A DNA stretch of 64,000 nt from an uncultured Alphaproteobacteria bacterium (GTDB lineage: Bacteria; Pseudomonadota; Alphaproteobacteria; Paracaedibacterales; JAKBAR01). A program made the position numbers and the translations under genes. The notes beneath the pieces were generated by a model. The model was not told where the DNA came from. It worked only from the letters and a program-made list of their open reading frames with translations, and did not search any database. Positions 20,963 through 55,600 of this stretch are shown here, piece after piece. The DNA is taken from NCBI GenBank assembly GCA_937896365.1, contig CALBMH010000060.1, positions 1,200-65,199 on the forward strand, read 5' to 3'. Numbering within the stretch: the stretch's first letter is position 1; each line of letters opens with the position of its first letter.

Positions 20963-21186
20963 AAAAAGTAATCGGATTTATTCCTAATTAAAGTCGATCT
21001 ATCTGTCGATGGAGGAGTGCACCCTTTTGGGGATGATAGCAAAGAACTTGAACGCTGTCGTTTAAAATATGAGGAATGGCTGTTTTAGGAAAGTACTCAC
21101 ATTTTGAATGACGTCTCTTCCCAAAGAAAGGGAAATAGCCTACAAACGACGTGTGCAGGGAAGAAAAGAGCGAGGGTCTTGGCAGA

Positions 21187-22338: not shown

Positions 22339-22359
22339 TATAAAGATAAGGACCTTTGT

Positions 22360-25368: not shown

Positions 25369-25402
25369 CCCCCTCCGTTGATTCCATCAAAAAGAGACTC
25401 AC

Positions 25403-26164: not shown

Positions 26165-26263
26165 GAACTTAGCTTTTCATGCATGGAAAAGACCAATTCG
26201 TATTGCATAAATAAGAGGCGCAACTTATGATCCTTTTATTCTTATTCGTTGCTTAGCATATTT

Positions 26264-27463: not shown

Positions 27464-27523
27464 AAATTCTTAGAAAATTTTTTTTATGATCGCATCGACA
27501 ATTGCATTATCAAAGGATGTTGG

Positions 27524-28318
27524 ATGTTTTTTTTAGCTCCCTTTCAATTGTGTTATCGCCATCGTTTTTTATTAGCCTATACGACGATGATGGAGCTCAG
27601 ATCCATGTACGCAGGATCCATTCTAGGCTTGATGTGGATCTTTGTGGGACCATTGTTTTTTTTGGTACTCTATTCCCTTGTCTATACAGTCATTTTTAGG
27701 ATTCAGCCAAAGGGAATGGAGATTTTTGATTACGTTTTTTATGTTTTTTGCGGTCTTCTGTCGTTTTTATCTTTTTCGTCCTCGTTGACACAAGGGGCTA
27801 GTTCTATTTCTAGGAATAAGCATGTCTTGTTGAATACGGTGTTTCCTGTGGAGCTTCTTCCTATACGAACAACCGTGATTGCCCATGTACCCTTAGGAAC
27901 GGGATTTTTCTTATTGGGAATTGCTGGTGGCTGTTTGGGGATGTTTTCATGGATGTGGTTTTTTATTCCGGTGGTTATTCTTCTTCAAATCATCGCTCTT
28001 TCGGGGGTGTCGATGATGTTCTCTTTAATCACCTTAGTGTTGAAAGATATGGAGCAGCTCCTTCCCTATATTGCCATGATTTTTATGGTGATTACCCCTA
28101 TTGCCTATACGCCGGATATGGTTCCTTTATCGTTAAAGATTATTTGCTATCTCAATCCTTTGTTTTATTTCACTCAATCCTTACAATATCTTTTTGTATT
28201 TCATCAATGGCCACCGACTTATGTGATTTTAGGACTTATTTTCATGAGTTTTTTTTCATTTTCTGTGTCTTTTTGGATTTTTCAAAGGGTCAAATCAACT
28301 TTTTATGATATGGCATAG
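27524..28318 (+). CDS. wzm: ABC-2 type polysaccharide export permease
   Basis: 264 aa with about six TM segments. N-terminal ELRSMYAGSILGLMWIFVGPL is typical of Wzm/TagG. Its stop abuts the wzt ATG. Confidence 0.85.
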   Translation: MFFLAPFQLCYRHRFLLAYTTMMELRSMYAGSILGLMWIFVGPLFFLVLYSLVYTVIFRIQPKGMEIFDYVFYVFCGLLSFLSFSSSLTQGASSISRNKHVLLNTVFPVELLPIRTTVIAHVPLGTGFFLLGIAGGCLGMFSWMWFFIPVVILLQIIALSGVSMMFSLITLVLKDMEQLLPYIAMIFMVITPIAYTPDMVPLSLKIICYLNPLFYFTQSLQYLFVFHQWPPTYVILGLIFMSFFSFSVSFWIFQRVKSTFYDMA

Positions 28319-29524
28319 ATGCATATGAAAATGGATTCTGTTGCTATAAAGGTACAAAATCTCACAAAAACATATGGACAGACGTCGTCTCTTGTGAACA
28401 TCATGAAAAGTTTTTTTTTGAGAGATTCATGCCACGAAAGTACGGCATTTAAAGCACTGGATGATGTTTCTTTTATTCTTCAAAAAGGGGAGAAAGTGGC
28501 TCTTTTAGGGCGTAATGGAGCAGGAAAAAGTACGCTTCTTAAGCATCTTTTAGGAACGTATAAACCAACGTTTGGATCCGTTTATGTACAAGGATTTCTT
28601 TATCCATTGATGCATATTGGATCGGGGTTCCACGCTCTTTTATCGGGGTATGAGAATACAAAAATGTACCTCATGAATCTTGGCCTTTATGGAAGAAACC
28701 TTAAGGTTGCTATGGATAATACGTTTGCATTTGCGGAACTTGATGACGTTTTGCATCAGCCTTTTCAAACCTATTCGTTGGGTATGAAAATGCGTCTTCA
28801 GTTTGGTGCCGCAACCTCCATCAAGCCTGATATTTTAGTTGTTGACGAAGTATTAGGGGCCGGTGATGCTTATTTTGTTCGAAAATCTGCAAAGCGTATT
28901 CATAATCTTACATCCCATGGAACGACGCTTCTTTTGGTATCCCATAACATGACCCAAGTGTTGGAATTTTGTGATCGCGCTCTTTGGCTGGAAAAAGGAA
29001 AACTTATTGCTGATGCTCCTGCATTTGAGCTTGTCAATCGCTACGAAGCTTTTTTAATGAATGGTTTTAAAGATGAGACGTCTTTTTTAGATGATGGTCG
29101 TGAAGTGTATCGATGGAAGGGAAAAAGGGGCATTTCTCTGCAATCTGTTATGATGGATCCGCTAAGAACCCAGTTTGGATCGAAGATAACGCTAAAGTTA
29201 ATCTTAAGGATTGAGCAGCAAAAAGACTATTCTTGCGAGTATTTATTGACTTTATGGAATCGCCAGGGACAGTGTATTACACGCATCCGATGGCCCATCG
29301 ATCATTTTTCAGGAAAAGAAGGAGAAGAACGTATTTTAACAGTGGCATTTGATCCTCTTATGATCCATGGTCAAACCATAGCCTTTTCTTTTTCAATTTA
29401 TGATAAAGCAGAGCAGGAGAATGCTTCTCCTTTTTTTGATATCGTGACACGTTTTTTATCATGGAATATCCCATCCTTAAACACACCTTATCTTTTACCG
29501 TCTTTCTCCGATCTATCAACTTAA
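28319..29524 (+). CDS. wzt: Polysaccharide export ABC ATPase with C-terminal extra domain (Wzt paralogue 1)
   Basis: Walker A LLGRNGAGKSTLLK, signature YSLGMKMRL, Walker B ILVVDEVLGAGD, plus a non-ABC C-terminal region of about 150 aa. Confidence 0.88.
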   Translation: MHMKMDSVAIKVQNLTKTYGQTSSLVNIMKSFFLRDSCHESTAFKALDDVSFILQKGEKVALLGRNGAGKSTLLKHLLGTYKPTFGSVYVQGFLYPLMHIGSGFHALLSGYENTKMYLMNLGLYGRNLKVAMDNTFAFAELDDVLHQPFQTYSLGMKMRLQFGAATSIKPDILVVDEVLGAGDAYFVRKSAKRIHNLTSHGTTLLLVSHNMTQVLEFCDRALWLEKGKLIADAPAFELVNRYEAFLMNGFKDETSFLDDGREVYRWKGKRGISLQSVMMDPLRTQFGSKITLKLILRIEQQKDYSCEYLLTLWNRQGQCITRIRWPIDHFSGKEGEERILTVAFDPLMIHGQTIAFSFSIYDKAEQENASPFFDIVTRFLSWNIPSLNTPYLLPSFSDLST

Positions 29525-29537
29525 AAGGATTCACTCT

Positions 29538-30356
29538 ATGATCGAATGTTTGAAGAAATGGCAAGTTGATCCGAAAAAACGCTTTTTTTTGGCAAGATTA
29601 GGGTTTTATGTTTACAAAATAGGCAATAAGCTCCATCAATTCTCGGGACATATTTTACGTTTTTTAAATGAATCCACTACCGATGATCAAACAGATTGGT
29701 TTCAAAGGGAACGCCAGTCCTTACACCGTCATATCCAAAAAATTTTATATCGTCAAAAGAAGGAATACGAAAATTATGCATATTTTCATGGATATCCCTA
29801 TCAAGGGCTAGCCATTGCGGGGGTTTATGGGGAAAGATCTACCGAGGAAAGGTTTGAAACCTATCAGCTCAAAAAATTTTTTGGGGCACAGGATACAATC
29901 CTTGATATTGGATGTAATTGTGGATTTGTTGGGATTTACACAGCCTTTCGCTTGAGTTGCCATGTGACAGGTCTTGATATAAATCCTTATATGATTGAGA
30001 TTGGTCAACAAACAGCGCGGTACCTTAGGATTTTGGATAATGTTCACTTGATGGCGCAGAGCTTTCATGATTTTAAGACCGAAACACACTATTCCGGTGT
30101 TTTTTCCTTTGCCACCCATTGGACCGATGATGAAAAATACCGTGTTCCTTTGGAAGAACATCTCAAAAGAATTCATTCACTTTTGAAAAAAGAGGGTATT
30201 CTTATTTTTGAATCCCATTGCAATGATGTGGGCCAAGAAAGTTTTTATCAAAGTTTGGAAAAGGCAAAGGAATTTTTTGATGTTCAATTTTTAACTCATT
30301 CCGATAATAAATCCCGTGAGGTTTATGTCATGCGCAGAAAAGAAATGACCGTTTAA
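29538..30356 (+). CDS. Class I SAM-dependent methyltransferase
   Basis: 272 aa. Motif I ILDIGCNCGFVG, acidic post-I residue in VTGLDIN, later LLKKEGILIFE. Confidence 0.75.
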   Translation: MIECLKKWQVDPKKRFFLARLGFYVYKIGNKLHQFSGHILRFLNESTTDDQTDWFQRERQSLHRHIQKILYRQKKEYENYAYFHGYPYQGLAIAGVYGERSTEERFETYQLKKFFGAQDTILDIGCNCGFVGIYTAFRLSCHVTGLDINPYMIEIGQQTARYLRILDNVHLMAQSFHDFKTETHYSGVFSFATHWTDDEKYRVPLEEHLKRIHSLLKKEGILIFESHCNDVGQESFYQSLEKAKEFFDVQFLTHSDNKSREVYVMRRKEMTV

Positions 30357-30383
30357 CTAACCTCCTTGACGACTCTATTGCGT

Positions 30384-31394
30384 ATGAAAAAAATTTACTT
30401 TTATGCTGGCCATCACGTGGATTTCAAGTGGGTATTTTCCACTCTCAAAGCCTGTCGAGATTTAGGGTTAAATGTTTGCTATGGCTGTGTCTATGGCATA
30501 GAGGATGTCCAACAATCGCCTTATTTTTTAAAAAATATCCCGTTTTTTTATGGGAAAGAGGCCTTAAGAGTAAAAGCCGATATTGTTATTTCAGCGTCTT
30601 CTGGGCTTTCAAAAGCATCTTTTCGGTATGGTGATTTTTTTTCCATTCATATGCCCCATTCTCTGATCAGCCTTCATATGGCTTATCCCGAAGATGCTTT
30701 TGATGATGTAGATCTTTTGTTTGCAGCGGGCCCCCATCATGGAAATGAATGGGATATGATCAATGAAAAACGTTTTTTGAAGAAAAAGCCATGGTTTGCT
30801 GTTGGGTATGGTTTTTTTGATCTCCTTCAACATGCTCTTTGCGTGCGGGCCCCCAAACGCATATTGATAGCACCTTCTTGGGGAGAGGATAATCTTTTAG
30901 AATCTTCAGCTCTTTCTCTTGCTCAGCAGCTTTTATCAGAAGGATATGACGTCATTCTGCGCCCTCATCCGTTGTTTTTTGTCGATAAAAAAGATGTCTT
31001 AGAACATCTGCAAAAAATCTGCCCAACTTTAACAATTGAATCGTCTTTGGATCAAAAAAATGATGGTTTTTATACTTCTTCTTTTTTAATCACTGATTAT
31101 TCAGGGATTGCCTTTGAATATGCTTTTTTCCATCATCGGAAAGTGATTTTTGTCGATACACCTATGAAAAAAGCCCACGATAATTGGAAAAGAGACCCCA
31201 TTTTACCTATTGAGCTGTCTTTTCGCAATCTTCTGGGTCAATCGTGTCCGAATAATTCTCATGACATCATGCAAACACTAAAACATATTGAAAAGATGCC
31301 TTTTCTTACACAAGATATGACCAAAAATTTTGTCTATCATCCTTTCTTATGTAAAATGTACGCATCGTCTATTCTAAACTCTTTGGTCCTGTGA
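30384..31394 (+). CDS. CDP-alcohol phosphotransferase-like protein (TagB/TagF family-like)
   Basis: RILIAPSWGEDNLL and FLITDYSGIAFEYAFFHHRKVIFVD resemble the Glyphos_transf signature. ATG at 30384 is preferred to TTG at 30366. Confidence 0.55.
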   Translation: MKKIYFYAGHHVDFKWVFSTLKACRDLGLNVCYGCVYGIEDVQQSPYFLKNIPFFYGKEALRVKADIVISASSGLSKASFRYGDFFSIHMPHSLISLHMAYPEDAFDDVDLLFAAGPHHGNEWDMINEKRFLKKKPWFAVGYGFFDLLQHALCVRAPKRILIAPSWGEDNLLESSALSLAQQLLSEGYDVILRPHPLFFVDKKDVLEHLQKICPTLTIESSLDQKNDGFYTSSFLITDYSGIAFEYAFFHHRKVIFVDTPMKKAHDNWKRDPILPIELSFRNLLGQSCPNNSHDIMQTLKHIEKMPFLTQDMTKNFVYHPFLCKMYASSILNSLVL

Positions 31395-32173
31395 AAGTGT
31401 CTTTTGAAAATACCCAAGTGATTATTCTAACGGCTGGAAAAGGAGAACGTCTTCGTCCTTTGACCAATCATATCCCAAAATCTCTTTTGCGGTTATTTGG
31501 GAAAACCCTTTTAGATCATAATATACAAGCTCTCTTCTCCCTTGGGTTAACACATGTCACACTTGTTACAGGGCATGGACATGCACATGTTCCACCTCAT
31601 TTCCATCGTGTGTATAACGCATCTTTTGAGACAACAAATATGGCATATTCCTTACTGGAAACGGGATGTGTAGATCCGGACAAGAATGTTCTTGTCCTTT
31701 ATGGTGATTGCGTCTATGAAGTGCGTATTCTCTATTCTCTTTTAAAAAGCGCCCATGATATTATGCTTTCTATTGATCAAAATTGGTTGAGTCTTTGGCA
31801 TCTTCGATTTGAAGACCCTTTGAGTGACTGTGAAACTCTACGCTTAGAAGGGGATTACATTGTGGACATTGGAAAAAAACCAAACCATCTTTTAGAGATG
31901 GATGGGCAGTACACCGGCCTTTTTTTTATTGCCAAAGATTGTATAGAAAACTTTCAAAGAGTCTATCACGATCTAAAACAAAGGACGGAGGATCCTAAAA
32001 AACTTTTTTTAACGGATGTATTCCAGCATTGGATTGACCAAAAAAACCCTCTTTATGCTCATCGCATTCAAGGAGGATGGCTGGAGTGTGATCAACATTC
32101 TGATATCACTTTATACGAGACTCTTTTTCAACAAAATAAATTGAAGTGTTTTTATCATGTCGACCCATCATAA
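31391..32173 (+). CDS. LicC-type nucleotidyl(cytidylyl)transferase
   Basis: 260 aa. VIILTAGKGERLRPLTNHIPKSLL, VLYGDCVY. The GTG start overlaps the upstream stop (GTGA at 31391-31394). Confidence 0.75.
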   Translation: MKVSFENTQVIILTAGKGERLRPLTNHIPKSLLRLFGKTLLDHNIQALFSLGLTHVTLVTGHGHAHVPPHFHRVYNASFETTNMAYSLLETGCVDPDKNVLVLYGDCVYEVRILYSLLKSAHDIMLSIDQNWLSLWHLRFEDPLSDCETLRLEGDYIVDIGKKPNHLLEMDGQYTGLFFIAKDCIENFQRVYHDLKQRTEDPKKLFLTDVFQHWIDQKNPLYAHRIQGGWLECDQHSDITLYETLFQQNKLKCFYHVDPS

Positions 32174-32582
32174 GTACGCACAACTTATCGATTTTCTTAT
32201 AAAAGAACGCTCAAAAATTATCCAACCAGAGTCGTGTCAAACAGGTCACTTGTGTTCTCACTTGGTTTCTTTCCCTCTTGAGGGTGTGCCGTTGATGGAA
32301 GAGCAGGAATTTTTTCTTGAAAAATTATGTTATCAAATGGATGTGAGAAAAAAATTATATAGTATTTATGATAATGATTTTCAAAAGCCTATGACTCAGG
32401 ATATGTTGTCTAGCAATCAACAGTATTATACTATTGGACTTTTAATTTTATGGGGCTTTTTTAGAAAAGATTTTAAATATCTCAATTCCGCTATGAAATA
32501 TATGGATGTTGTAGGGATACATTCATCGTTTCCAAAAATTTTTGACGTATGCCTTAAGGATTTTTTTAATGAGAACGCTTGA
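32157..32582 (+). CDS. Hypothetical protein (no recognisable motif)
   Basis: 141-aa ORF in operon register (17-nt overlap upstream, 14-nt overlap downstream). Confidence 0.45.
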   Translation: MSTHHKYAQLIDFLIKERSKIIQPESCQTGHLCSHLVSFPLEGVPLMEEQEFFLEKLCYQMDVRKKLYSIYDNDFQKPMTQDMLSSNQQYYTIGLLILWGFFRKDFKYLNSAMKYMDVVGIHSSFPKIFDVCLKDFFNENA

Positions 32583-33435
32583 TCTTGTTGTTCTTGCAGA
32601 CAGGCACTGCTCAACAAGCAAGACCTATGTGCATTACCTTTACCAACAAGGTTTTAGAGTCAGAAAAATTCTCTTGATGGATTTTGGACGCACAACACTT
32701 TTTTATGATGGATTTAAAAATTGTTTACCCTTTTCGTGGATGGAAAGTATTTCTTCTTTTTTTGCTCAAAAATCTCCACCATTTTCAAAAAGATTCCAAG
32801 AACTCTGTGATTTTTTCCAACAATTTGTTCCCCATCCCATCGATTACTCCAAAGATTTTCCTTTTGAACGCTATACCCAAAAGGTTTCTCATGTATGCGG
32901 AAAAGATATTAATGATCCTTTCATCCAGCGAGTATTGAATAACCAAAAAATTCAAACATTTTTATATACAAATGGTGGTATCGTTTCAAAAGATATTTTA
33001 GAGGTGGAAGGTCGACGTATCTTTCACGTCCATCCAGGTGTAGTGCCTTATGTGAAAGGGTCGGATGGTTTGCTATGGTCCTTTTTAATCCGGGGAAAGT
33101 TAGGGGCTAGTTGCTTTTATATGAATAGTGGTATTGATACGGGAGATATTATTCAAACAAAGGAATGGGATCTTTCTATCTTTCAGGGTTATCAAGGGCA
33201 ACCCTTTCCTCAAGAGACAATCTATCGTGCGCTTTTATACAGCTTTGATCCCCACCTAAGAGCCCAATTGTTTGCTGATGTGATGGAGAAACTTTATCCC
33301 AATCTTCAAAGTGCAATGACGAAAAAGCAACGACCCACGGAGGGTCGAACATACTATGTAATGCATCCCACCATTGTAAGCTATGCATTTAAAAAAATGG
33401 GCCTTTCCTCTATGATACATTCATCAAAAAAGTAG
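32569..33435 (+). CDS. Formyltransferase-fold protein (weak)
   Basis: IFHVHPGVVPYVKGSDGLLWSFLIRGKLGASCFYMNSGIDTGDIIQ resembles the HPSLLPxxRG..G.T.H.....DTG.I core of formyltransferases. The start is uncertain (32542 or 32569). Confidence 0.45.
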   Translation: MRTLDLVVLADRHCSTSKTYVHYLYQQGFRVRKILLMDFGRTTLFYDGFKNCLPFSWMESISSFFAQKSPPFSKRFQELCDFFQQFVPHPIDYSKDFPFERYTQKVSHVCGKDINDPFIQRVLNNQKIQTFLYTNGGIVSKDILEVEGRRIFHVHPGVVPYVKGSDGLLWSFLIRGKLGASCFYMNSGIDTGDIIQTKEWDLSIFQGYQGQPFPQETIYRALLYSFDPHLRAQLFADVMEKLYPNLQSAMTKKQRPTEGRTYYVMHPTIVSYAFKKMGLSSMIHSSKK

Positions 33436-33450
33436 TATTCTATAATCAAC

Positions 33451-36408
33451 GTGCAACTGATTATTTTAGCCGCAGGCAAACCTTACGTTGGGCAAGATCC
33501 TTCTCATTTATTGTCCTTAGCTTCTTCACAGGGAAGCCATCAACCGATTCATGTGCTGGATTGGATTGAAGAATGTTTTCGGGATGAAAAACCCGTGACT
33601 CATTGCGTGATTGGCTATCATGCATCCTCATCCTTAATCGAAGGAAATCATATCCGCTATCACATCAACCCGTTTTGGGAAAAAACGGGTGCATGTGGCT
33701 CTCTGATGCATGCGCCTTTGGATGATGATCTTTTTATTCATTATGGTGATATTCTCATCCATAAAGAAAAAATTAACGAATATCTCAAGAAACGGGATCC
33801 TCATCATATCCTTGTTGGCATTGATGAGAGTATGTCGACAAGAGAGTGTGTGCAAATGGGCAATCAATCGTTTTCTTTTATGGGATGTGCTTTTATTCCA
33901 AAAAAATATATTCATATTCTCCAACAAACCATCCACGAAGAACCATGCTTGGAACAAAAGCACATAGGCTCTCTCTTAGAAGCATTGATTAAACAAGATA
34001 TCCCCTTTCAAACCATTTCCATGGCGCATGAATGGTGTGATTTGGATGATCCTAGCCGGCTTCCTTATTTTTTTCTCGGTACAAAAGCGCAAACCCTTCA
34101 ACGTCTTTCGCCTTTCCTCAAGCATGGAAAAATTTTGCCCTTAGAAGTTATCCAACAGCACTCTTGGAGGAACAATTATGAGGAAAATCTTAAAAAAATT
34201 GATCAATCCTTAGGAAAAGGTCCGTGGATTGTCCGAAGTAGCGCACGAGAAGAAGATAGTTTTCATCAGAGTTTTGCGGGTGCATTTGATAGTTTTTTAA
34301 ATGTTCAAAAAGAAAATGCGGCAGATGCCATTTCAAAAGCGTTTGATGCCTACCCGTCTTATGATGATCACAACGAAGTCCTTATTCAACCTATGATTCA
34401 TAAGCCTATCGACATCTCAGGAGTTGTGTTTACACAGTCTATGGAGGGTGCTCCTTATTATATTGTGAACTATACCCATGAAGGCGATGATACAACAGGT
34501 ATTACCGGCGGCCATGCGAATGGACGTGTGTCGGTTGTATTGAAACATCATGTGCAAAAAGAATCTTTGGATCCCTGGATCATCAATCTCTTAGAAGCAG
34601 TTCAAGAAATCGAATATTTGATTGGGTATCATGCCCTTGATATTGAATTTTGTATCCGGCATCAAAATGTTTATATTTTACAAGTACGCCCCCTTGTGAA
34701 TAAAAAGGATGTTATCCGTGACACTCCATCTTTTCAAACATTTGAACGTCTTTTAGCTAAGGAAGCATCTTTTATAGAAAAACTTTCTAACGCTTCTAAA
34801 GATTCTCTTTTTTTTAGCATCATGTCGGATTGGAATCCTGCAGAAATGATTGGTTTTACGCCTAAACCCCTGGCTCATAGTCTTTATCAAACTCTGATTA
34901 CGGATCATATATGGGCGCAGCAGCGTTTTGAATTTGGATATCAAGATCTGCGTCATCATCCTTTAATGATGCAATTTTGTGGACATCCCTATATTGATGT
35001 GACCAAAAGTGTTCAATCCTTTTTACCAAGGGCCTTGCCCACAAGCATCATCCATAAGATTACAAATTTTTGCATCCGATATTTACAAAAGAATCCCCAC
35101 CTTCATGACAAAATAGAATTTGATATTTTGCCCACTTGTTATGGGTTTTCCTTTGAAAAATGGCACGAGCGATTTTCGTCTCTTTTGTCCCAAGAAGAAC
35201 GAAATCTTTGGAAAAAGGAGCTTATTTTGTTAACACAAAAGGCTTTTGAAAAGATTTCATCCTTTTTTGACAAATTATATCTTCTGGAAGAAAAAGCAGC
35301 ACTCCTATCCAAAGAAGATCACACTCATCATCCATGGTTTGTGATTACATCATTCATCCATCTGATTCAACAGTATGGTACTCTTCCTTTTGCTCATTTA
35401 GCACGTTGTGGTTTTATTGCTGCAACCATGATCAAAGATTTAGAAGGTTTACAGATTCTCCCAAAAGAACGTATCCACGCATTTTTAATGAGCATTGAGA
35501 CTGTGAGTTCGCAATTACAAAAAGATGCGTTTGAAACAAAAATGAAAAAAATGTCTAAACAAGATTTTTTTCATCAATATGGTCATCTTCGCCCAGGCAC
35601 ATATGATATTGATACGCCGACCTATGCTTCTCAAAAGGATATCTTTTTAGAGCCTTTAATTGAAAAGGCACAACCTTTTTTTCCAAGTGATTTTTCCTGG
35701 GAACCTCATGAAAAAGGAAGAATAGAAAACTATCTCAAAAACGATTTAAAGATATCTTTTGATGCCTTTGATACTTTTATCCGACAAGCCATTTATGGGC
35801 GTGAATATGGGAAATTTATCTTTACACGCTATCTTTCGAAATTACTTTCCTTCATCAGAGAAATTTTTTTGAAAGAAGGCGTCGAGGAGCATCTTTTACC
35901 CTTTTTGATCCTTCAAGACATCCAACAATTCTACGTGGGATCCGCTGATTTCTTTCGCGATATTTGTCGTTTAAGAGAATCATTGACCAAGCGCAAAGAA
36001 CAATATGATATCTGTATGTCTATTTTGCTCCCTCCAACTCTATCAAGAGAAGAAGACTTTTTTTCCTTCTCCTATCCAAAAGCCCAGCCTAACTTTATCA
36101 CACAAAAATCCATTACAGCCCCTTGTTATGTGCTTCCAGATCGTGTCGATGATCGTATGCTTTACTCGTTATCTGGAAAAATTATTCTTATTGAAAAAGC
36201 CGATCCTGGATTTGATTGGTTATTTAGTTACCCCATTGCGGGGCTAATTACGCTTTATGGTGGGGCCAATTCTCACATGGCCATTCGTTGTCATGAATTT
36301 GGTTTACCAGCTGCTATTGGTGTTGGAGATATTCTCTACCAATCCCTTGTCAAAGGTCATATGCTGCGTTTGGATTGCCTACAAAGAATAATGACAGTGG
36401 TGCAATGA
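33451..36408 (+). CDS. Fusion protein: nucleotidyltransferase-like N-domain plus PpsA/PPDK-family ATP-grasp and phospho-His swivel domains (candidate amide/glutamine kinase)
   Basis: 985 aa with a GTG start. N-terminus QLIILAAGKPYVG; WIVRSSAREEDSFHQSFAGAFDS (PEP/pyruvate-binding domain type); C-terminus GGANSHMAIRCHEFGLPAAIGV (mobile His domain). There is no TIM-barrel PEP-utiliser C-domain. Confidence 0.7.
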   Translation: MQLIILAAGKPYVGQDPSHLLSLASSQGSHQPIHVLDWIEECFRDEKPVTHCVIGYHASSSLIEGNHIRYHINPFWEKTGACGSLMHAPLDDDLFIHYGDILIHKEKINEYLKKRDPHHILVGIDESMSTRECVQMGNQSFSFMGCAFIPKKYIHILQQTIHEEPCLEQKHIGSLLEALIKQDIPFQTISMAHEWCDLDDPSRLPYFFLGTKAQTLQRLSPFLKHGKILPLEVIQQHSWRNNYEENLKKIDQSLGKGPWIVRSSAREEDSFHQSFAGAFDSFLNVQKENAADAISKAFDAYPSYDDHNEVLIQPMIHKPIDISGVVFTQSMEGAPYYIVNYTHEGDDTTGITGGHANGRVSVVLKHHVQKESLDPWIINLLEAVQEIEYLIGYHALDIEFCIRHQNVYILQVRPLVNKKDVIRDTPSFQTFERLLAKEASFIEKLSNASKDSLFFSIMSDWNPAEMIGFTPKPLAHSLYQTLITDHIWAQQRFEFGYQDLRHHPLMMQFCGHPYIDVTKSVQSFLPRALPTSIIHKITNFCIRYLQKNPHLHDKIEFDILPTCYGFSFEKWHERFSSLLSQEERNLWKKELILLTQKAFEKISSFFDKLYLLEEKAALLSKEDHTHHPWFVITSFIHLIQQYGTLPFAHLARCGFIAATMIKDLEGLQILPKERIHAFLMSIETVSSQLQKDAFETKMKKMSKQDFFHQYGHLRPGTYDIDTPTYASQKDIFLEPLIEKAQPFFPSDFSWEPHEKGRIENYLKNDLKISFDAFDTFIRQAIYGREYGKFIFTRYLSKLLSFIREIFLKEGVEEHLLPFLILQDIQQFYVGSADFFRDICRLRESLTKRKEQYDICMSILLPPTLSREEDFFSFSYPKAQPNFITQKSITAPCYVLPDRVDDRMLYSLSGKIILIEKADPGFDWLFSYPIAGLITLYGGANSHMAIRCHEFGLPAAIGVGDILYQSLVKGHMLRLDCLQRIMTVVQ

Positions 36409-37055
36409 TGCTTAAGATCGGACTCTCCCAACGTCTTGATTTTTATGGGCCTTATCGTGAAATACATGAATCTCTCGATCAACGATGGAGTCAGCTTTTA
36501 TGCAAGGAAAGGTATATACCCATTCCCTTGAGCAGCATTGTGCTGCTCAAGGATTTAACAGGCGCAATCAATTTTGATGGGTTTCTCTTAACAGGAGGTC
36601 CCAGTTATGGAAGTCCCCATACAGAAACCCGTGATCGATTCGAGTACGATATTCTATCCCAAGCAGCTGAAAGAAATATTCCTGTTTTAGGCGTGTGTCG
36701 TGGATTTCAAATGATGAATCGTTTTCTGGGAGGAACTCTCCAAGAACGCCCTGAGCATGTGGGAAAAACTCACGAAATATCTGTGTTTGGTGATTTTTGT
36801 ATGACGGTCAATAGTTTTCATACACGATGTGTGGATTGCTTAGGAAAGGGTTTTGAAAGTTTTGCCATATGCAACCTTGATCAGTCGATTGAGGGCGCTT
36901 TTCATCAAACATTACCATGGATAGGTATTATGTGGCACATGGAACGCGACGATCCCTTTCAGGATTTCTCATCCATGCTCCTTTACCAATTATTTCATCA
37001 ACGTTCGACAAAAGGGTTGAGAGATGCCTGCCATCGTTTTTCAAAATGTCAGTAA
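36405..37055 (+). CDS. Peptidase C26 / class I glutamine amidotransferase-like hydrolase (PuuD-like)
   Basis: IPVLGVCRGFQMMNRFLGGTL (nucleophile Cys) and IGIMWHMER (His-Glu region). The ATG at 36405 overlaps the upstream TGA (caATGAtg). Confidence 0.78.
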   Translation: MMLKIGLSQRLDFYGPYREIHESLDQRWSQLLCKERYIPIPLSSIVLLKDLTGAINFDGFLLTGGPSYGSPHTETRDRFEYDILSQAAERNIPVLGVCRGFQMMNRFLGGTLQERPEHVGKTHEISVFGDFCMTVNSFHTRCVDCLGKGFESFAICNLDQSIEGAFHQTLPWIGIMWHMERDDPFQDFSSMLLYQLFHQRSTKGLRDACHRFSKCQ

Positions 37056-38298
37056 AGTCTATCAAAAATATGCTTCTTATACCCATTCTTTCTTGGACCA
37101 AGTCGGTCTTGGATGGTGTATTAAGCACAAACCAGAATCCCTTAAAGCCTTGGATAATATCTCTTTTACGCTCAGAAAAGGTTCAAAAGTAGGTCTTTTG
37201 GGGCGTAATGGTGCCGGAAAAACAACTCTTTTAAAACTCATGACACAAAATTTTAAACCCACAAGTGGTTCCGTGATCTGCCATGGATCGGTCCAAGCAC
37301 TCATGCAAATGGGCCTTGGGTTTCACGAGGAATTGTCCGGTTGGAATAATATACGATCATCCCTTGTGTTTAATAATATCCCAAGGTGCCGATGGACAAA
37401 AACTATTGATGACATTTTGGATTTTGTCGAGCTGGATGATTTTATTCATGCCCCTTTTAAAACATACTCTCTTGGCATGAAAGCGCGTTTAGAGTTTGCT
37501 GTGGCCACATCGATTACACCGGATATTCTGATTGTGGATGAAGTCTTAGGGGCCGGTGATGGGTATTTCAGCCGAAAATCAGCGACACGCATGCACAAGC
37601 TAACTCAAAAAGGTTGTACTCTTTTGATGGTCTCCCATAGTGTTTCACAGTTAAATGAATTTTGCGATGAAGGGATATGGCTTGAAAAAGGAAAAATAGT
37701 ACATCAAGGCCCCTTAGAAAAACTTACTAAAGCTTACTTGACATCGATTGATACGCTGTCAGATTCCAATACAACATCATTATCTTTAACACGTGATTCA
37801 CCTTTTTTGATAGCACATGACATTCTCAAGGGACCTCTTACCCTCAAAGAGGATGCACTGTCGCAAGAAGAAACTATAGGATATATTTTCTTAAAAGGCT
37901 TTAATGACGGACGCTCTCCTTTTCAACCGGGAGATCGTCTTGTGATTACGTACATACCTTCATCCTTATCAACAGATACAAAGCATTTTCTAGAAAATCT
38001 TCCACAAGCACGCCAACGCTTTTTCATTTCTTTTTGGAAGGATGATCATCTCCCCCTTTTTAAAATCGCTGTTCCATCTTTTGCACAATCTTATGAGCAC
38101 ATGATGGACCCTTTCCTTTTAGGTGGGGGAGATTATTATGTGTATTGTGAAAAATACTTTTCAAAAGAAGATAAAGAAAAAATAGGATCCTTTTATCTTT
38201 ATCACGCCAATGATACCTCGCCCCCCTTGTTTTATCATCCTGTTACACTTAAAATTAATGATTGCTTTGTAAAGCAAAATTTTAATCCCCAACAATAA
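37024..38298 (+). CDS. Polysaccharide export ABC ATPase, Wzt paralogue 2, with a different C-terminal domain
   Basis: Walker A LLGRNGAGKTTLLK, YSLGMKARL, ILIVDEVLGAGD. The nucleotide-binding domain is clearly paralogous to 28319..29524; the C-terminal 170 aa or so is unrelated by eye. No second permease gene is present. Confidence 0.85.
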   Translation: MPAIVFQNVSKVYQKYASYTHSFLDQVGLGWCIKHKPESLKALDNISFTLRKGSKVGLLGRNGAGKTTLLKLMTQNFKPTSGSVICHGSVQALMQMGLGFHEELSGWNNIRSSLVFNNIPRCRWTKTIDDILDFVELDDFIHAPFKTYSLGMKARLEFAVATSITPDILIVDEVLGAGDGYFSRKSATRMHKLTQKGCTLLMVSHSVSQLNEFCDEGIWLEKGKIVHQGPLEKLTKAYLTSIDTLSDSNTTSLSLTRDSPFLIAHDILKGPLTLKEDALSQEETIGYIFLKGFNDGRSPFQPGDRLVITYIPSSLSTDTKHFLENLPQARQRFFISFWKDDHLPLFKIAVPSFAQSYEHMMDPFLLGGGDYYVYCEKYFSKEDKEKIGSFYLYHANDTSPPLFYHPVTLKINDCFVKQNFNPQQ

Positions 38299-38308
38299 GG
38301 ATCACCTT

Positions 38309-39181
38309 ATGGAAGAGTGCCAAGATTGCCATCATGACCAACTGATTAGCATCGATACTTATAAGCGTACGTGGTTTTTATGTCCGTCTTGTGGGAATGC
38401 TCGGCCATGCCAAAAATCTTTTTATTCTTTGTCTTTTCTACCCAATAAAAAATTCAAAAAGGACAAACAAAATCCCGAAGATATGTATGATTATTTTGTT
38501 CAAGACGTACATATTCAGCACTCACAAAAGGATGCAAAGCGCTTTTTTGATTGTTATGTCCATAACCGTATCGATATAAAAAATAAAGATATTCTTGATA
38601 TTAGTGGGGGAAATGGTCATTTCATTCATTTTTTTCAGCAGCATGGTGCGCGTGTTTTCATGACGGAAATGAATCAAAAGGCTATTGATTACGCCCAAAA
38701 AAAACTGGATATTCCAAGCTTTTATTATGATTTTCAAAAACATCGTTTGTCTTCGGTGATTACGCAAAAATTTGATATTATTATGTTGCGTGCAGCGATT
38801 ATGTTTTGTCGGGATCTTGATGGTCTTGTTACTGAACTTAAAAATTGTTTAAACGAAAACGGAATGATTATTATTGAGCATTCAGTAGAGCCAACTCTTG
38901 GGGTTTTAACACGTGTCCAATGCGATGAATTTAGTTATGAGATTTTAAGACAACCTCATAATGTGATCAAACTTTTTGAAAGGCATGGATTTCAGCTCGA
39001 AAAGCATGTTCATGAAACGGATCCAACCCTTTATGTTTATGATCACGACCTTTTAAATGGCTGGCTTTTTCTTCATTATTTATATGAGCTCAAAGGCGTC
39101 TTACGATTACGCAAACATCTAAACCTTTTTGCATTTCGTGCCCGCGACCGCCGCCGAAGCGTTTTTTTCTTTGTAAAGTAG
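38309..39181 (+). CDS. SAM-dependent methyltransferase with N-terminal Cys4 ribbon
   Basis: CQDCHHD..CPSCGN, then motif I ILDISGGNGHF and later MIIIEH. Confidence 0.7.
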   Translation: MEECQDCHHDQLISIDTYKRTWFLCPSCGNARPCQKSFYSLSFLPNKKFKKDKQNPEDMYDYFVQDVHIQHSQKDAKRFFDCYVHNRIDIKNKDILDISGGNGHFIHFFQQHGARVFMTEMNQKAIDYAQKKLDIPSFYYDFQKHRLSSVITQKFDIIMLRAAIMFCRDLDGLVTELKNCLNENGMIIIEHSVEPTLGVLTRVQCDEFSYEILRQPHNVIKLFERHGFQLEKHVHETDPTLYVYDHDLLNGWLFLHYLYELKGVLRLRKHLNLFAFRARDRRRSVFFFVK

Positions 39182-39191
39182 CGTCTAGACA

Positions 39192-41042
39192 ATGTGTGGA
39201 TTCGTCAGCATCATTGCTCATCAGGTTGATGAACGCATTTTACGAGGCATGCGCGACATGTTGCGTCACCGTGGGCCAGATAGTGAAGGACTTTGGATTG
39301 GAACAACGCGTGAGGGATGGAAAATTGGTCTTTCCCATCGACGGTTAAAGATTCTCGATCTTTCCGAAAACGGCGCGCAGCCTATGTGGGATGATGATCG
39401 ATTGTGCGCCATTGTTTTTAATGGGGAAATTTATAACTTCAAAGAGTTGCGCCGGTCTCTCCAGGAAAAGGGATATACTTTTCGATCACACAGTGACACG
39501 GAAGTTCTTTTAAAGGCTTATATCGCCTATGGTCTTGATTTTATCCATCACCTCAATGGGATGTTTGCCTGTACTATTTGGGATGAAAGGAAACAAGAAT
39601 TAATCGTTATCAGAGATCGCTTTGGTGAAAAACCCCTTTATTATGGGTACCTTCCAAAAGGAGGAGTGATTTTTGCATCGGAAATAAAGGCGATCGTTGC
39701 GCATCCTCAATGGAATGTCAGGATTCATGAAGCGATGCTTGATGCTTTCTTAAAAGGAGCCATGCCTTATGAATCCGATGAAACGTATCTTCGAAATATT
39801 TTTAAGGTTCCACCCTCCCACCTAATGATTTTTAATGGCAAAGGGGAACTCACTTTTAAAAAACGTTATTGGGAGCCACCTGTTTATGCGGAAAAAACCG
39901 TATGGTCCCAAGAGGACAGTGAGGAATTTTTATATCTATTACAAAAAAGTGTCAAAGACCGTTTCCAAGCAGATGTTCCCGTAGGAACATGCCTTTCGGG
40001 AGGATTAGATTCGTCCTTGATCACGTGTATTGCCTATCAAACACGCCATACAAAACCTTTTGCTGCAATTTCTGCACGCTTTCCAAAAGACCAGACATTA
40101 GATGAAGGTCCTTATATTGACGCCGTTTTGCATCACTGTAAAGGAACAGGGCTTTTTGTTACGCCATCTCCCTTAGAGCTTGTGGAGACGATGGATGATC
40201 TTCATTGGCACCAGGAAGAACCTTTTTTATCCGCATCCATGTACCTTGAATGGTGTGTTCAAAAAAAAGCAAAGGCATCTGGGATTACTGTCATGTTAGA
40301 TGGACAAGGTGCTGACGAAATTTTAGGGGGATATCAACATTATTTCCAATCATTTCAGCTAGATCTTTTGAGTGAAAAAAAATATGCATCTCTCTTAAAG
40401 GAAACATATTTATTTAACCGCCATCTTCACAAAGCATCTATCCTTTATTCAAATCCTTCCCGTCGATTTAATAAAAATATTGCATACTCCTTTTCATTCT
40501 TAGCAAAACAACATTGGAATAGGCTTCCATTTTTCGAAAATGGCGTCTTTAACAGCAAAGACATAGGGCTTTTTCGTTATCGTGTTCTCCATGGTCTTTT
40601 ATATGACATGCTTCCTTCCCAATTGCATTCTGCTGATCGTAATGGCATGGCCCATAGCATGGAAACACGTTTTCCATTTTTAGATTACCCTCTTGTGGAT
40701 TTTTGTTTAAATCTTCCAAGAGATGCTTTAATTCGAAGGGGATGGCAAAAATACATTTTAAGACAGTCAACTAAACATATCTTACCGAAAAGCATTCAAT
40801 GGAGAGCAGATAAGGTTGGGTTTGCTGCCCCCTTAGATCTATGGTTAAGGGAGGATCTAAAAAAATGGGGACATGATCTTCTACAACAACCGGATGTCAA
40901 ACATATGGCAAGTGGTCATAATATATCGCTTGAGCATGTATGGAAAAAACATCAAAAGGGTGAAGACCATTCGTGGGAAATATGGAAATGGATCAGCGCT
41001 TCCTATTGGAAAAATATCAAATGGACAAAAGCGATAGACTAA
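39192..41042 (+). CDS. Asparagine synthase (glutamine-hydrolysing)-family amidotransferase, copy 1
   Basis: N-terminal MCGF nucleophile, HRGPD, FNGEIYNF, PP-loop LSGGLDSSLI. Confidence 0.88.
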   Translation: MCGFVSIIAHQVDERILRGMRDMLRHRGPDSEGLWIGTTREGWKIGLSHRRLKILDLSENGAQPMWDDDRLCAIVFNGEIYNFKELRRSLQEKGYTFRSHSDTEVLLKAYIAYGLDFIHHLNGMFACTIWDERKQELIVIRDRFGEKPLYYGYLPKGGVIFASEIKAIVAHPQWNVRIHEAMLDAFLKGAMPYESDETYLRNIFKVPPSHLMIFNGKGELTFKKRYWEPPVYAEKTVWSQEDSEEFLYLLQKSVKDRFQADVPVGTCLSGGLDSSLITCIAYQTRHTKPFAAISARFPKDQTLDEGPYIDAVLHHCKGTGLFVTPSPLELVETMDDLHWHQEEPFLSASMYLEWCVQKKAKASGITVMLDGQGADEILGGYQHYFQSFQLDLLSEKKYASLLKETYLFNRHLHKASILYSNPSRRFNKNIAYSFSFLAKQHWNRLPFFENGVFNSKDIGLFRYRVLHGLLYDMLPSQLHSADRNGMAHSMETRFPFLDYPLVDFCLNLPRDALIRRGWQKYILRQSTKHILPKSIQWRADKVGFAAPLDLWLREDLKKWGHDLLQQPDVKHMASGHNISLEHVWKKHQKGEDHSWEIWKWISASYWKNIKWTKAID

Positions 41043-41044
41043 AC

Positions 41045-42319
41045 ATGAACAAACCTTTAGGCTGTAAAAAAGTGTGTATTGTTTCTTTTACACCTGTTTT
41101 TGATGAGCCCCGTGTGTGTCGCCAAGCGAGGGCCTTATACGAGGCAGGTGCTGATGTCACAGTAATCGGCTATAAAGGAAGGGGTAAATGCCCAAGTTTT
41201 TGGAATTTTATTGAGCTTAATCTGCATCCGCAGATATCATCATCGAAGACACCTTCTCCACTATCAAAACAAAAAAACATTCTTTTGAAGATTATGAATG
41301 TCGGCATAGTGCGTATTTCTCAATATGCCAAGCGTTTTCAAAAGTTATCTCTTCTTTTACTCAGTCGCTTTTCAAAACATGCAGCTATCTCTTTTTTTTG
41401 GAGGAATCATGAATACCAAAATGTCAAAAAAAACATTCCCCCTGTAGCAGCTGATCTTTATATTGCCCATGATTATTTCACACTTCCCATTGCCCTTTAT
41501 CTTTCTTCCATCCATCCTGGCAAAGTAGCCTTTGATGCCCATGAACATGCGACTACGCAATATGCCCATTCTTTATGGTTTCGATGGATAGAAGCACCGT
41601 ATGTTCATTCCTTACAAGAGTATCTTTTTCCCCATGTACACTGCTTTACAACCGTTTGTGATGGCATTGCTGATCTTTTAAAAAAAGAGTATCACTTACC
41701 TCAAAAACCCTTTGTGATTCGTAGCACCCCTTTTTATGAAGCACATGATTTCAAAAAAACAGATCCAAAAAATATTACCCTTCTTTATCACGGTGGTATT
41801 TCTCCTATGCGTGGTCTTGAAGAAGTGATTGAAAGCGCTCCCTCATGGCATGATCACTTAACGATGATTATGCGTGGTCATGGGGATCCACACTATATAA
41901 ATAAATTAAAAGAAATTATTAAAAATTATTCTCTTTGTAACAAAATACGTATTGAATCTTCTGTTGCTGCGTCAAGACTTGTCTCTTATGCCCATCGTGA
42001 TGCCGATATTGGATACTTTGCTCAACCACAAATTAGCCCGCAAAAACGCTATACACTTCCAAATAAATTTTTTGAATACACAATGGCGGGGCTGTGTCTT
42101 GTGGTGAACAAGGGGTATGAGATGAAAAAGCTATGTGATCATTACCAAAATGGTGTGTTTGTGAATTCCCTGACAAAGGAAGATATTGCTCATTGTCTTA
42201 ATTCTCTCACCCCAGAGGTGATTGATCGTTGTAAAGAAAAATCCCTTCACGCTGCGAAGGAGCTTTGTTTTGATCGTGAAGGTGAAAAAATGATCCAAGA
42301 ATATGCTTCTCTTTTTTAG
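41045..42319 (+). CDS. Glycosyltransferase-like protein, paralogue C
   Basis: FDAHEH and YTLPNKFFEYTMAGLCLVVNK are shared with 22360 and 23531. The ATG at 41045 lies 2 nt after the asnB-like stop and is preferred to 40973. Confidence 0.65.
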   Translation: MNKPLGCKKVCIVSFTPVFDEPRVCRQARALYEAGADVTVIGYKGRGKCPSFWNFIELNLHPQISSSKTPSPLSKQKNILLKIMNVGIVRISQYAKRFQKLSLLLLSRFSKHAAISFFWRNHEYQNVKKNIPPVAADLYIAHDYFTLPIALYLSSIHPGKVAFDAHEHATTQYAHSLWFRWIEAPYVHSLQEYLFPHVHCFTTVCDGIADLLKKEYHLPQKPFVIRSTPFYEAHDFKKTDPKNITLLYHGGISPMRGLEEVIESAPSWHDHLTMIMRGHGDPHYINKLKEIIKNYSLCNKIRIESSVAASRLVSYAHRDADIGYFAQPQISPQKRYTLPNKFFEYTMAGLCLVVNKGYEMKKLCDHYQNGVFVNSLTKEDIAHCLNSLTPEVIDRCKEKSLHAAKELCFDREGEKMIQEYASLF

Positions 42320-42333
42320 ACAATCAAAGACTT

Positions 42334-55525: not shown

Positions 55526-55600
55526 TGGGGTATAGCCAAGCGGTAAGGCATCGGTTTTTGGTACCGACATTCCTAGGTTCGAATCCTAGTACCCCAGCCA
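55526..55600 (+). tRNA. tRNA-Gln (anticodon UUG)
   Basis: 75-nt cloverleaf folded by hand. Acceptor TGGGGTA/TACCCCA; D-arm GCC-AAGCGGTAA-GGC; anticodon stem TCGGT/ACCGA with loop TTTTGGT (TTG at 34-36); T-arm CTAGG-TTCGAAT-CCTAG; discriminator G; encoded CCA. It is close to E. coli tRNA-Gln. Confidence 0.95.

Follow-up and report, generated by a model that had tools for sequence, protein, structure and literature searches.

We analyzed a 64,000-nucleotide stretch of DNA from an uncultured Alphaproteobacteria bacterium (GenBank assembly GCA_937896365.1, contig CALBMH010000060.1, positions 1,200 to 65,199 of the forward strand; hereafter the window), which carries, within a glycan cluster, genes for a fused kinase, a C26-type hydrolase, a cytidylyltransferase-like protein, and a TagF-like phosphotransferase. 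An original prediction, made from the letters alone, had read these genes as a candidate phosphoramidate-type pathway akin to the one that makes O-methyl phosphoramidate (MeOPN), the capsule decoration of Campylobacter jejuni. This reading is supported by our comparisons of protein families and gene neighborhoods. The features of the module are as follows.

33451..36408, + strand: 985-amino-acid (aa) fusion protein with a GTG start, comprising a nucleotidyltransferase-fold domain (aa 1–205) and an L-glutamine-kinase-type part with ATP-grasp (aa ~207–420), helical substrate (aa ~425–860), and swivel-His (aa ~870–985) domains
33451..34065, + strand: N-terminal nucleotidyltransferase-like domain of the fusion protein (N-domain), without the Arg of GxGxR and the Lys of 'PK'
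36274..36276, + strand: codon of the catalytic His942 of the fusion protein
36405..37055, + strand: C26/class I amidotransferase-fold hydrolase, predicted gamma-glutamyl-CDP-amidate (CDP-L-glutamine) hydrolase (CDP, cytidine diphosphate), with the triad Cys98 (codon 36696..36698), His178, and Glu180 (the latter two within MWHMER)
31391..32173, + strand: stand-alone 260-aa nucleotidyltransferase (Pfam NTP_transferase), predicted CTP:phosphoglutamine cytidylyltransferase (Cj1416 role; CTP, cytidine triphosphate)
30366..31394, + strand: TagF-like CDP-X phosphotransferase, predicted phosphoramidate transferase (alternative in-frame ATG at 30384)

Core enzymes of the module

The three motifs quoted in the original prediction (QLIILAAGKPYVG, WIVRSSAREEDSFHQSFAGAFDS, and GGANSHMAIRCHEFGLPAAIGV) were all present in open reading frame (ORF) 33451..36408. 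Pfam assigned PPDK_N to aa 238–329 and PEP-utilizers to aa 909–976 of the fusion protein, and the triosephosphate isomerase (TIM) barrel PEP-utilizers_C was found neither by Pfam nor in the full-length structural model. The AlphaFold2 model of the full-length protein (predicted local distance difference test [pLDDT] 85.2) had Listeria rifampin phosphotransferase as its best PDB fold in Foldseek (E 5e-24 over ~870 columns), and a sequence search of the PDB agreed with this match (phmmer E 2e-9). Because of these structure and sequence matches, the protein can be described as a nucleotidyltransferase-fold domain followed by ATP-grasp, helical substrate, and swivel-His domains; its helical, ATP-grasp, and swivel parts are predicted to form a rifampin-phosphotransferase-like kinase without a TIM barrel. 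Pfam, AlphaFold2, and Foldseek thus agree on the composition originally proposed for the fusion. Among solved structures, the Listeria enzyme (RPH; PDB IDs: 5hv1, 5fbs) comes closest: it too has an ATP-grasp domain, a helical domain, a swivel phospho-His, and no TIM barrel, whereas its identity to the window protein is 14–17%, its substrate domain is a different one, and it has no nucleotidyltransferase domain. A gene-calling or frameshift artifact was ruled out as the source of the fusion, because the full-length architecture was found in more than 100 homologues at a coverage of 97–100%.

Among the NCBIfam models, NF004508/PRK05849 matched aa 207–983 of the fusion protein with 756 bits (cut-off 501), which places the kinase outside the PpsA and pyruvate phosphate dikinase (PPDK) families. 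The phosphoenolpyruvate (PEP)-synthase models reached at most 78 bits (cut-offs 600–1000), and the PEP-synthase, PigC, and rifamycin-phosphotransferase models all remained below 80 bits (cut-offs 600–1300). We take PRK05849 to be the L-glutamine-kinase family of Cj1418 (EC 2.7.3.13); a literature search for PRK05849 gave no match, and several kinase homologues, both fused and unfused, carry the label 'glutamine kinase' from the Joint Genome Institute (JGI). His942, located within GGANSHMAIR, was invariant in 20 of 20 aligned homologues.

The hydrolase gene follows directly. The TGA stop of the kinase (36406–36408) overlaps the ATG of the hydrolase at 36405 as ATGA, which confirms the overlap originally reported at 36405–36408, and an independent ENA gene call on an identical contig gives the same start for the C26 protein (216 aa). 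ORF 36375/36405..37055 matched Peptidase_C26/GATase in Pfam (Peptidase_C26, 73 bits) and contained IPVLGVCRGFQMMN and IGIMWHMER. Its best NCBIfam model was NF045546, the Cj1417 equivalog, which aligned over its whole length with 121.8 bits (E 4e-35), and the next-best model was ~27 orders of magnitude behind (E 4e-8). The PuuD model gave only 22 bits against a cut-off of 266 (E 7e-5), and the hydrolase is thus closest to the Cj1417 model and not to PuuD. Cys98, His178, and Glu180, together with a family-specific set of residues, were invariant in 17 C26 members; the catalytic swivel His and the Cys-His-Glu triad, whose conservation had been named as a check, are therefore both preserved across aligned homologues. 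NF045546 was also the best family for 17 of 17 sampled members, including the Sulfuricurvum protein, which comes from a Campylobacterota locus with a complete set of Cj1415–18-type genes. The best E value among them (6e-46) suggests that none reaches the curated cut-off of 250 bits, and the cut-off looks narrower than the functional family, because even the best of a sample that includes the Sulfuricurvum protein stands at this value. The original prediction had described Cj1417 as an enzyme that releases phosphoramidate; this part has to be corrected, since Cj1417 converts CDP-L-glutamine into cytidine diphosphoramidate and glutamate (10.1101/2024.11.05.622173; 10.64898/2026.02.12.704994).

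The 260-aa enzyme keeps an intact LTAGKGERLRPLT...IPKSLL (GxGxR...PK) signature, and homologues with 34–37% identity carry the JGI name L-glutamine-phosphate cytidylyltransferase. A further fusion within the same pathway was seen in a protein of 395 aa (P0270), which joins the cytidylyltransferase to the C26 hydrolase (PF00483 + PF07722).

Kinase architectures and the extra N-terminal domain

When one genome was scanned for each GTDB species, at least 593 loci with relatives of the kinase came up, and the best 80 were analyzed with 10-kb flanks. These 80 resemble the query, a kinase fused to the nucleotidyltransferase-like domain (NT-fused), more than the rest do; the proportions of architectures are therefore unrepresentative, and contrasts within the sample stand. 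A profile search of 1.84 billion representatives gave 1445 kinase clusters (50% identity) at E <= 1e-30. Kinase, C26, and cytidylyltransferase genes were linked in 74–75 of the 80 loci, which span at least 10 phyla and usually show the order kinase, C26, nucleotidyltransferase. The C26 homologue was present in 74 loci, mostly directly after the kinase, and the homologue of the 260-aa enzyme in 75, where it normally comes third, behind kinase and hydrolase.

The kinases fell into three architectures. Unfused kinases (~775 aa) were found in 20 loci, 16 of which had an adjoining stand-alone gene of the APS_kinase (adenylyl-sulfate kinase) family; the remaining four were truncated or frameshifted contigs, two of which grouped with NT-fused kinases in the tree. 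Kinases with an N-terminal APS-kinase fusion were found in 16 loci, mostly of Acidobacteriota (L043, L047–L049, L054, L056, L057, L062, L063, L066, L067, L069, L070, L077, L079, and L080). NT-fused kinases accounted for 45 loci (the window among them), which spanned at least 10 phyla. PRK05849 recognized the other architectures as well, with 957 bits for the unfused homologue of Sulfuricurvum (Campylobacterota) and 938 bits for APS-kinase-fused forms, such as that of L056 (APS_kinase 117.6 bits). The unfused Sulfuricurvum locus also encodes an APS-kinase, a C26 protein, and a nucleotidyltransferase, and no Campylobacter entry was among the best 120 matches to its kinase, which belongs to a very large family. 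The NSH[MAL]AI motif was present in 70 of 79 kinases spanning all three architectures, in which the central-domain motifs MxDWNPAE and HLRPGTY and the Cys-His-Glu triad of the hydrolase were likewise kept.

The architectures differed in their neighbors. An APS-kinase lay within 10 kb in 3/45 NT-fused loci versus 32/36 other loci, a TagF-like gene in 30/45 versus 4/36, and a formyltransferase-like gene in 20/45 versus 4/36. One of the NT-fused loci without a TagF-like gene (L037) has an adjoining CDP-alcohol phosphotransferase. In the window itself, a P-loop scan, jackhmmer, and six-frame tblastn found no APS-kinase-like gene in any frame of the 64 kb, in line with the remark in the original prediction that a P-loop equivalent of Cj1415 is missing there. 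The fusion and the missing Cj1415 had been put forward as two departures from Campylobacter; both are real and are correlated across genomes, but the fusion is not rare, being one of three common architectures. In a neighbor-joining tree of the kinase domain, unfused and APS-kinase-fused kinases formed one clade with the NT-fused kinases outside it, and the split between architectures is therefore old rather than sporadic.

Three loci (L031, L032 [Rheinheimera], and L059) were hybrids with an NT-fused kinase and a stand-alone APS-kinase, and in Rheinheimera the formyltransferase-like region lies within a longer protein of ~475 aa. Modules also occurred on plasmids: NT-fused ones in Vibrio alfacsensis, Roseovarius, and Pseudohalocynthiibacter, and unfused ones in Azospirillum, Agrobacterium vitis, and Cupriavidus. 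The plasmid or chromid loci include L082 (Vibrio alfacsensis pYa108), L083 (Azospirillum lipoferum 4B AZO_p6), and L084 (conjugative). Among cultured strains, NT-fused modules are carried by Bosea sp. UC22_33, Vibrio alfacsensis 04Ya108, Legionella septentrionalis, Paenalcaligenes hominis, and Pseudomonas canadensis. In Azospirillum, a methyltransferase and an 846-aa protein annotated as adenylyl-sulfate kinase precede the unfused kinase, and a sulfotransferase-domain protein follows it. A 365-aa family specific to APS-kinase-fused loci (14/16 such loci) is a candidate transferase for a 3'-phosphorylated donor; it had no match in Pfam and no similarity to the sulfotransferase-domain protein of Azospirillum. 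We dropped the idea that APS-kinase loci are paired with sulfotransferase-fold transferases, by a logic like that of 3'-phosphoadenylyl sulfate, since such neighbors were sporadic and occurred in both types of loci.

We focused on the N-domain that distinguishes the NT-fused kinases. Residues 1–205 of the window protein alone gave no Pfam match, and the N-domains of relatives just reached NTP_transf_3. The AlphaFold2 model of the domain, built on an alignment of 47 sequences, had a pLDDT of 93.7, and its best PDB folds in Foldseek were MurU, glucose-1-phosphate thymidylyltransferase, PntC (phosphonate cytidylyltransferase), GlmU, and inositol-phosphate cytidylyltransferase. A hidden Markov model (HMM) of the N-domain family matched the 260-aa cytidylyltransferase of the window with 77.7 bits (E 7.6e-24) and nothing else in the window; the same HMM matched the stand-alone cytidylyltransferases of 75 loci with 68–116 bits over their full length. 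Because of these full-length matches, we regard the N-domain as a paralogue of the pathway's own cytidylyltransferase.

The paralogue has been remodeled in its signature loop. Of the stand-alone enzymes, 70/71 have the Arg of GxGxR and 72/73 the Lys of 'PK', whereas each of the two residues was found in 0/44 N-domains. A five-residue deletion removes GxR in all 44 N-domains (the window's reads 'LAAGK-----PYVG'), and the position of the Lys is occupied by Ser, Ala, Pro, Thr, or another non-basic residue (Ser in the window). The N-domain of the window and its nearest relatives also lack a ~27-residue segment that the active paralogues conserve. The N-domain retains the core residues N73, S84, Y98, D100, D125, and W195 of the active enzymes, and a basic residue follows GAG in 31/44 N-domains. 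In GlmU and RmlA-type enzymes, the Arg and the Lys hold the phosphates of the nucleoside triphosphate (NTP) and the leaving pyrophosphate. Ordinary cytidylyl transfer by the N-domain is therefore unlikely, and the domain, in which the intact GxGxR...PK signature of a CTP:phosphoglutamine cytidylyltransferase was not found, is classed as a paralogue and not as a member of that family. The stand-alone cytidylyltransferase was retained in every NT-fused locus with enough sequence. The fused N-domain is thus no substitute for a Cj1416-like enzyme, whose role is filled by the separate 260-aa cytidylyltransferase; by analogy, a nucleotide-binding regulatory or scaffolding domain appears more likely than a second cytidylyltransferase.

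Such an arrangement resembles known cases in which an inactive paralogue regulates an active nucleotidyltransferase, namely GMPPA, which acts with GMPPB, and the large subunit of ADP-glucose pyrophosphorylase. As in these proteins, the fold and some of the ligand pocket are kept and the catalytic residues of the signature loop are lost, whereas the paralogue of the window is not a separate subunit but is joined to the enzyme that starts the pathway.

The TagF-like gene and the surrounding glycan cluster

The TagF-like protein matched Glyphos_transf in Pfam with 30.2 bits (gathering score 22.1). The profile of its family aligned to the donor-binding domain of TagF (3l7j, residues 499–638) and TarL (8va1) with E 4e-5, and the segments GYxRxD, APSW, R(P)H, and SDxSG were common to the TagF-like family and TagF/TarL. 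On the RefSeq plasmid pYa108 of Vibrio alfacsensis, the genes for the kinase, the C26 protein, the cytidylyltransferase, and a 'CDP-glycerol glycerophosphotransferase family protein' are consecutive. The window holds no further nucleotidyltransferase detectable with the N-domain profile that could supply the TagF-like enzyme with a CDP donor.

The remaining genes in and around the module are the following.

27524..28318, + strand: Wzm permease (Pfam ABC2_membrane)
28319..29524, + strand: Wzt ATPase (Pfam ABC_tran)
29538..30356, + strand: MT1, class I S-adenosylmethionine (SAM) methyltransferase (Pfam Methyltransf_25/31/11)
32157..33435, + strand: conserved accessory pair, a 141-aa ORF (32157..32582) and a formyltransferase-like 297-aa protein (32542..33435)
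37024..38298, + strand: second Wzt-type ATP-binding cassette (ABC) ATPase (NCBIfam and Pfam ABC_tran/Wzt) with a 174-aa C-terminal extension
38309..39181, + strand: MT2, class I SAM methyltransferase (Pfam)

Pfam thereby confirmed the cytidylyltransferase-like gene, the two SAM methyltransferases, and the TagF-like gene of the original prediction. MT1, the TagF-like gene, and the nucleotidyltransferase are consecutive in the window. Homologues of MT1 were found in 9/45 NT-fused loci and in none of the other loci, and in seven of the eight loci besides the window they adjoin the TagF-like gene, the kinase, or the hydrolase; MT1 is a candidate for methylating either the phosphoramidate or the CDP-linked form that donates it. 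The formyltransferase-like protein gave weak Pfam matches to Formyl_trans_N, and a HxHxGxxP...G...D pattern, in which His replaces the usual Asn, was invariant in 14 members. Homologues of the 141-aa ORF occurred in 8/45 NT-fused loci.

The module lies within a glycan cluster of ~23 kb (~21151..44175) between atpB and an alphaproteobacterial-type ctaA. The cluster also holds glycosyltransferases, a trio of HisH/HisF/WbpG-like amidotransferases and two more that are AsnB-like, Wzm, and two Wzt paralogues. The C-terminus of the first Wzt showed 30% identity (E 6e-28) to that of the Wzt of a Pseudobdellovibrionaceae metagenome-assembled genome (L002), which in turn matched Pfam Wzt_C with 30.5 bits; Wzm and Wzt are the exporter of the glycan that presumably receives the decoration. 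The second Wzt gene overlaps the hydrolase gene by 32 nucleotides and is followed by MT2, and its C-terminal extension matched nothing in the PDB, Pfam, or the L002 counterpart. The pair of second Wzt and MT2 after the hydrolase also occurred in Bosea sp. UC22_33 (L001) and L002, both of which have nearly the whole cluster of the window in the same order; in L034, a Wzt-like gene is found together with a homologue of MT2 on the upstream side of the kinase. Promoter and terminator scans of the window were at chance level, and we read the genes as a single operon because they overlap or lie close together.

The operon has one Wzm and two Wzt-type ATPases. The amidotransferase trio, of the acetamidino-sugar type, and the two AsnB-like glutamine amidotransferases (24736..27463 and 39192..44175) make it probable that the glycan carries many amide or amidine groups. 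The flanking genes encode a B12-dependent ribonucleotide reductase (7119..10649), atpB (20029..20760), a heme A synthase (44230..45228; alphaproteobacterial-type, below the cut-off), a class I lysyl-tRNA synthetase (49866..51431), and tRNA-Gln (55526..55600). The G+C content of the window was ~36–47%, which, like the flanking genes, fits an alphaproteobacterium of low G+C, and no close genome was found among the GTDB representatives, in which the best kinase identity was 37%.

Proposed pathway and its alternatives

In C. jejuni MeOPN biosynthesis, Cj1415 acts as a cytidine diphosphoramidate 3'-kinase, and Cj1421 and Cj1422 are the transferases. The preceding kinase, cytidylylation, and hydrolysis steps are the reactions of Cj1418, Cj1416, and Cj1417 (PMC11800397, PMC6429109, 10.1101/2024.11.05.622173, 10.64898/2026.02.12.704994), and the methyltransferase has not been established even in C. 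jejuni (PMC11800397). The window shares with this system the three core families, the catalytic His, the Cys-His-Glu triad, and the setting in a surface-glycan locus with methyltransferases, and in most relatives the core genes also stand in the same order (kinase, hydrolase, cytidylyltransferase). It differs in that it has no Cj1415-type kinase, that its kinase carries the additional remodeled cytidylyltransferase paralogue, that glycan export relies on Wzm/Wzt and not on a Kps-type capsule system, and that the hydrolase scores under the NCBIfam equivalog cut-off. Its candidate transferase is TagF-like.

We consider it probable that the operon builds a phosphoramidate decoration by means of the Campylobacter core enzymes, that an unphosphorylated donor is delivered to the TagF-like enzyme, and that the N-domain is regulatory. 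The kinase part would phosphorylate the amide nitrogen of glutamine with ATP via phospho-His942, the 260-aa cytidylyltransferase would convert CTP and phosphoglutamine into CDP-L-glutamine, and the C26 hydrolase would strip off glutamate to leave cytidine diphosphoramidate; homology and linkage support the assignment of these reactions to the first three steps of the C. jejuni cytidine-diphosphoramidate pathway. Since the variant is without a Cj1415-type 3'-kinase, unphosphorylated cytidine diphosphoramidate is the predicted donor. The TagF-like enzyme may take it directly, as TagF does with CDP-glycerol and FtaD of Clostridioides difficile with CDP-N-methylthreonine, and place phosphoramidate onto a sugar hydroxyl of the Wzm/Wzt-exported glycan with release of cytidine monophosphate (CMP). 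Methylation by MT1 could take place on the donor or after transfer, and the N-domain would serve as a nucleotide-binding regulatory or scaffolding part of the kinase protein.

A pathway of comparable logic is that of Clostridioides difficile FtaA–D (CD0241–CD0244, flagellin Type A), in which FtaB makes CDP-threonine, the methyltransferase FtaC acts on the donor in its CDP-linked form, and FtaD, a TagF-like enzyme, moves the substituted phosphate to N-acetylglucosamine (10.64898/2026.02.12.704994; PMC10714395). Both combine a nucleotidyltransferase, a SAM methyltransferase, and a TagF-like transfer with CMP release, a likeness in pathway logic; in contrast to the proposed pathway, the Fta donor is CDP-(N-methyl)threonine, and the system involves no amide hydrolysis, PPDK-like kinase, or C26 hydrolase.

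Several points weigh against the proposed pathway. The kinship with Cj1416, Cj1417, and Cj1418 was judged by family models and names, and the equation of PRK05849 with the Cj1418 family draws on JGI names. The 121.8 bits of the hydrolase fall short of the curated NF045546 cut-off of 250. A TagF-like gene was absent within 10 kb in 15/45 NT-fused loci, an APS-kinase could be encoded elsewhere in the genome, and the YxD and WxE acidic/aromatic core kept in the N-domain means that the domain may be catalytic. The 80 loci are the most query-like of at least 593, and their proportions are biased. Finally, the phosphoramidate on the glycan is predicted from genes, both for the organism of the window and for all NT-fused relatives.

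Four other explanations were weighed. Rather doubtful, in our view, is that the N-domain is an active second nucleotidyltransferase, which would make another donor or cytidylylate phosphoglutamine, render the protein bifunctional, and stand in for the Cj1415 step. Its fold is confidently that of a nucleotidyltransferase with the six core residues retained and a basic residue after GAG in most members (31/44), and the N-terminus of the kinase holds either the N-domain or an APS-kinase, almost never both; yet the canonical Arg and Lys for the NTP phosphates are gone in 44/44, the ~27-residue segment of the active paralogues is missing from the window's domain and its nearest relatives, an intact stand-alone cytidylyltransferase is kept in every NT-fused locus with enough sequence, and regulatory inactive paralogues are an established pattern, as in GMPPA/GMPPB and the large subunit of ADP-glucose pyrophosphorylase. 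It is also unlikely, slightly more so, that the same enzyme families yield another product, be it from a different amide or amine substrate, as an N-formylated or N-methylated phosphoramidate, for which the formyltransferase-like protein and the second methyltransferase could be used, or as phosphoglutamine transferred from CDP-L-glutamine. Sequence does not reveal which substrate is used, the NT-fused clade stands apart from the Campylobacter-type clade, the C26 score is under the equivalog cut-off, and the formyltransferase-like protein (with intact His and Asp) and its 141-aa partner accompany the module (20/45 loci); FtaD moreover provides a precedent for CDP-amino acids as direct donors (10.64898/2026.02.12.704994). 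The central motifs of the kinase and the family-specific residues of the hydrolase are nevertheless common to Campylobacter-type loci, the near-universal presence of the hydrolase (74/80) argues for the removal of glutamate, and the formyltransferase-like gene is missing from more than half of the NT-fused loci.

The names of RefSeq relatives ('CDP-glycerol glycerophosphotransferase family' and 'phosphocholine cytidylyltransferase family') and the Glyphos_transf match would fit a teichoic-acid-like glycerol- or ribitol-phosphate module, made up of the TagF-like enzyme and the 260-aa nucleotidyltransferase and unrelated to the kinase and the hydrolase. We regard this as very improbable, as the 260-aa family follows the kinase and the hydrolase in 75/80 loci with or without a TagF-like gene, no genes for glycerol-3-phosphate or ribitol-phosphate supply were seen in the conserved neighborhood, and the JGI name of the family is L-glutamine-phosphate cytidylyltransferase. 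A role in central metabolism, in which the kinase would be a PEP synthase or pyruvate phosphate dikinase and the hydrolase a PuuD-type enzyme for gamma-glutamyl-GABA (gamma-aminobutyrate), is suggested only by the generic RefSeq names ('PEP-utilizing enzyme' and 'gamma-glutamyl-gamma-aminobutyrate hydrolase family protein') and is scarcely credible: the genes sit inside a glycan operon, and the reading is refuted by the missing TIM barrel, at most 78 bits to PEP-synthase models, and 22 versus 266 bits for PuuD.

The pathway proposed above, with core enzymes of the Campylobacter type and a regulatory N-domain, may be extended. Tentatively, and with less than even confidence, NT-fused loci could represent a second, widespread, Cj1415-independent route with a direct donor, in which the N-domain senses a CDP-linked intermediate and a methyl phosphoramidate cap is read by Wzt. 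The donor would serve TagF-type or CDP-alcohol-type phosphotransferases, and the N-domain would control the ATP-costly glutamine kinase. In E. coli O9a, the methyl phosphate cap added by WbdD is read by the C-terminal carbohydrate-binding domain of Wzt, and a methyl phosphoramidate cap at the non-reducing end would be a nitrogen analogue of this terminator. The two systems are alike in Wzm/Wzt export with a Wzt_C-type domain and in the similarity of methyl phosphoramidate to methyl phosphate, and in the window, methyltransferases and the second Wzt are interleaved among the phosphoramidate genes; unlike O9a, the window has no WbdD-like kinase/methyltransferase. A capping role of methyl phosphoramidate in the glycan of the window is speculation only.

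The fusion protein itself is not new, because it is common in public databases under generic names or names derived from KEGG Orthology. To our knowledge, the recognition of a TagF-linked variant that is NT-fused, lacks an APS-kinase, and bears a degenerate cytidylyltransferase paralogue on its kinase is new; no paper describing it was found in the library that was searched. In Campylobacter, MeOPN serves phages as a receptor and affects both invasion and serum resistance. MeOPN surveys have been limited to Campylobacter species (PMC3907429), and a 2022 review terms the glutamine kinase 'C. jejuni-specific' (PMC9561416). MeOPN is thus treated in the literature as peculiar to Campylobacter; the P–N-forming module occurs in at least 593 GTDB species representatives of many phyla. 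Phosphoramide groups of unexplained origin are known chemically in the lipopolysaccharides of Xanthomonas campestris and Shewanella (PMC8042644, PMC3210612), for which the module is a possible biosynthetic explanation. Furthermore, the split between the APS-kinase type and the NT-fused/TagF type provides a concrete hypothesis for how phosphoramidate may be transferred.

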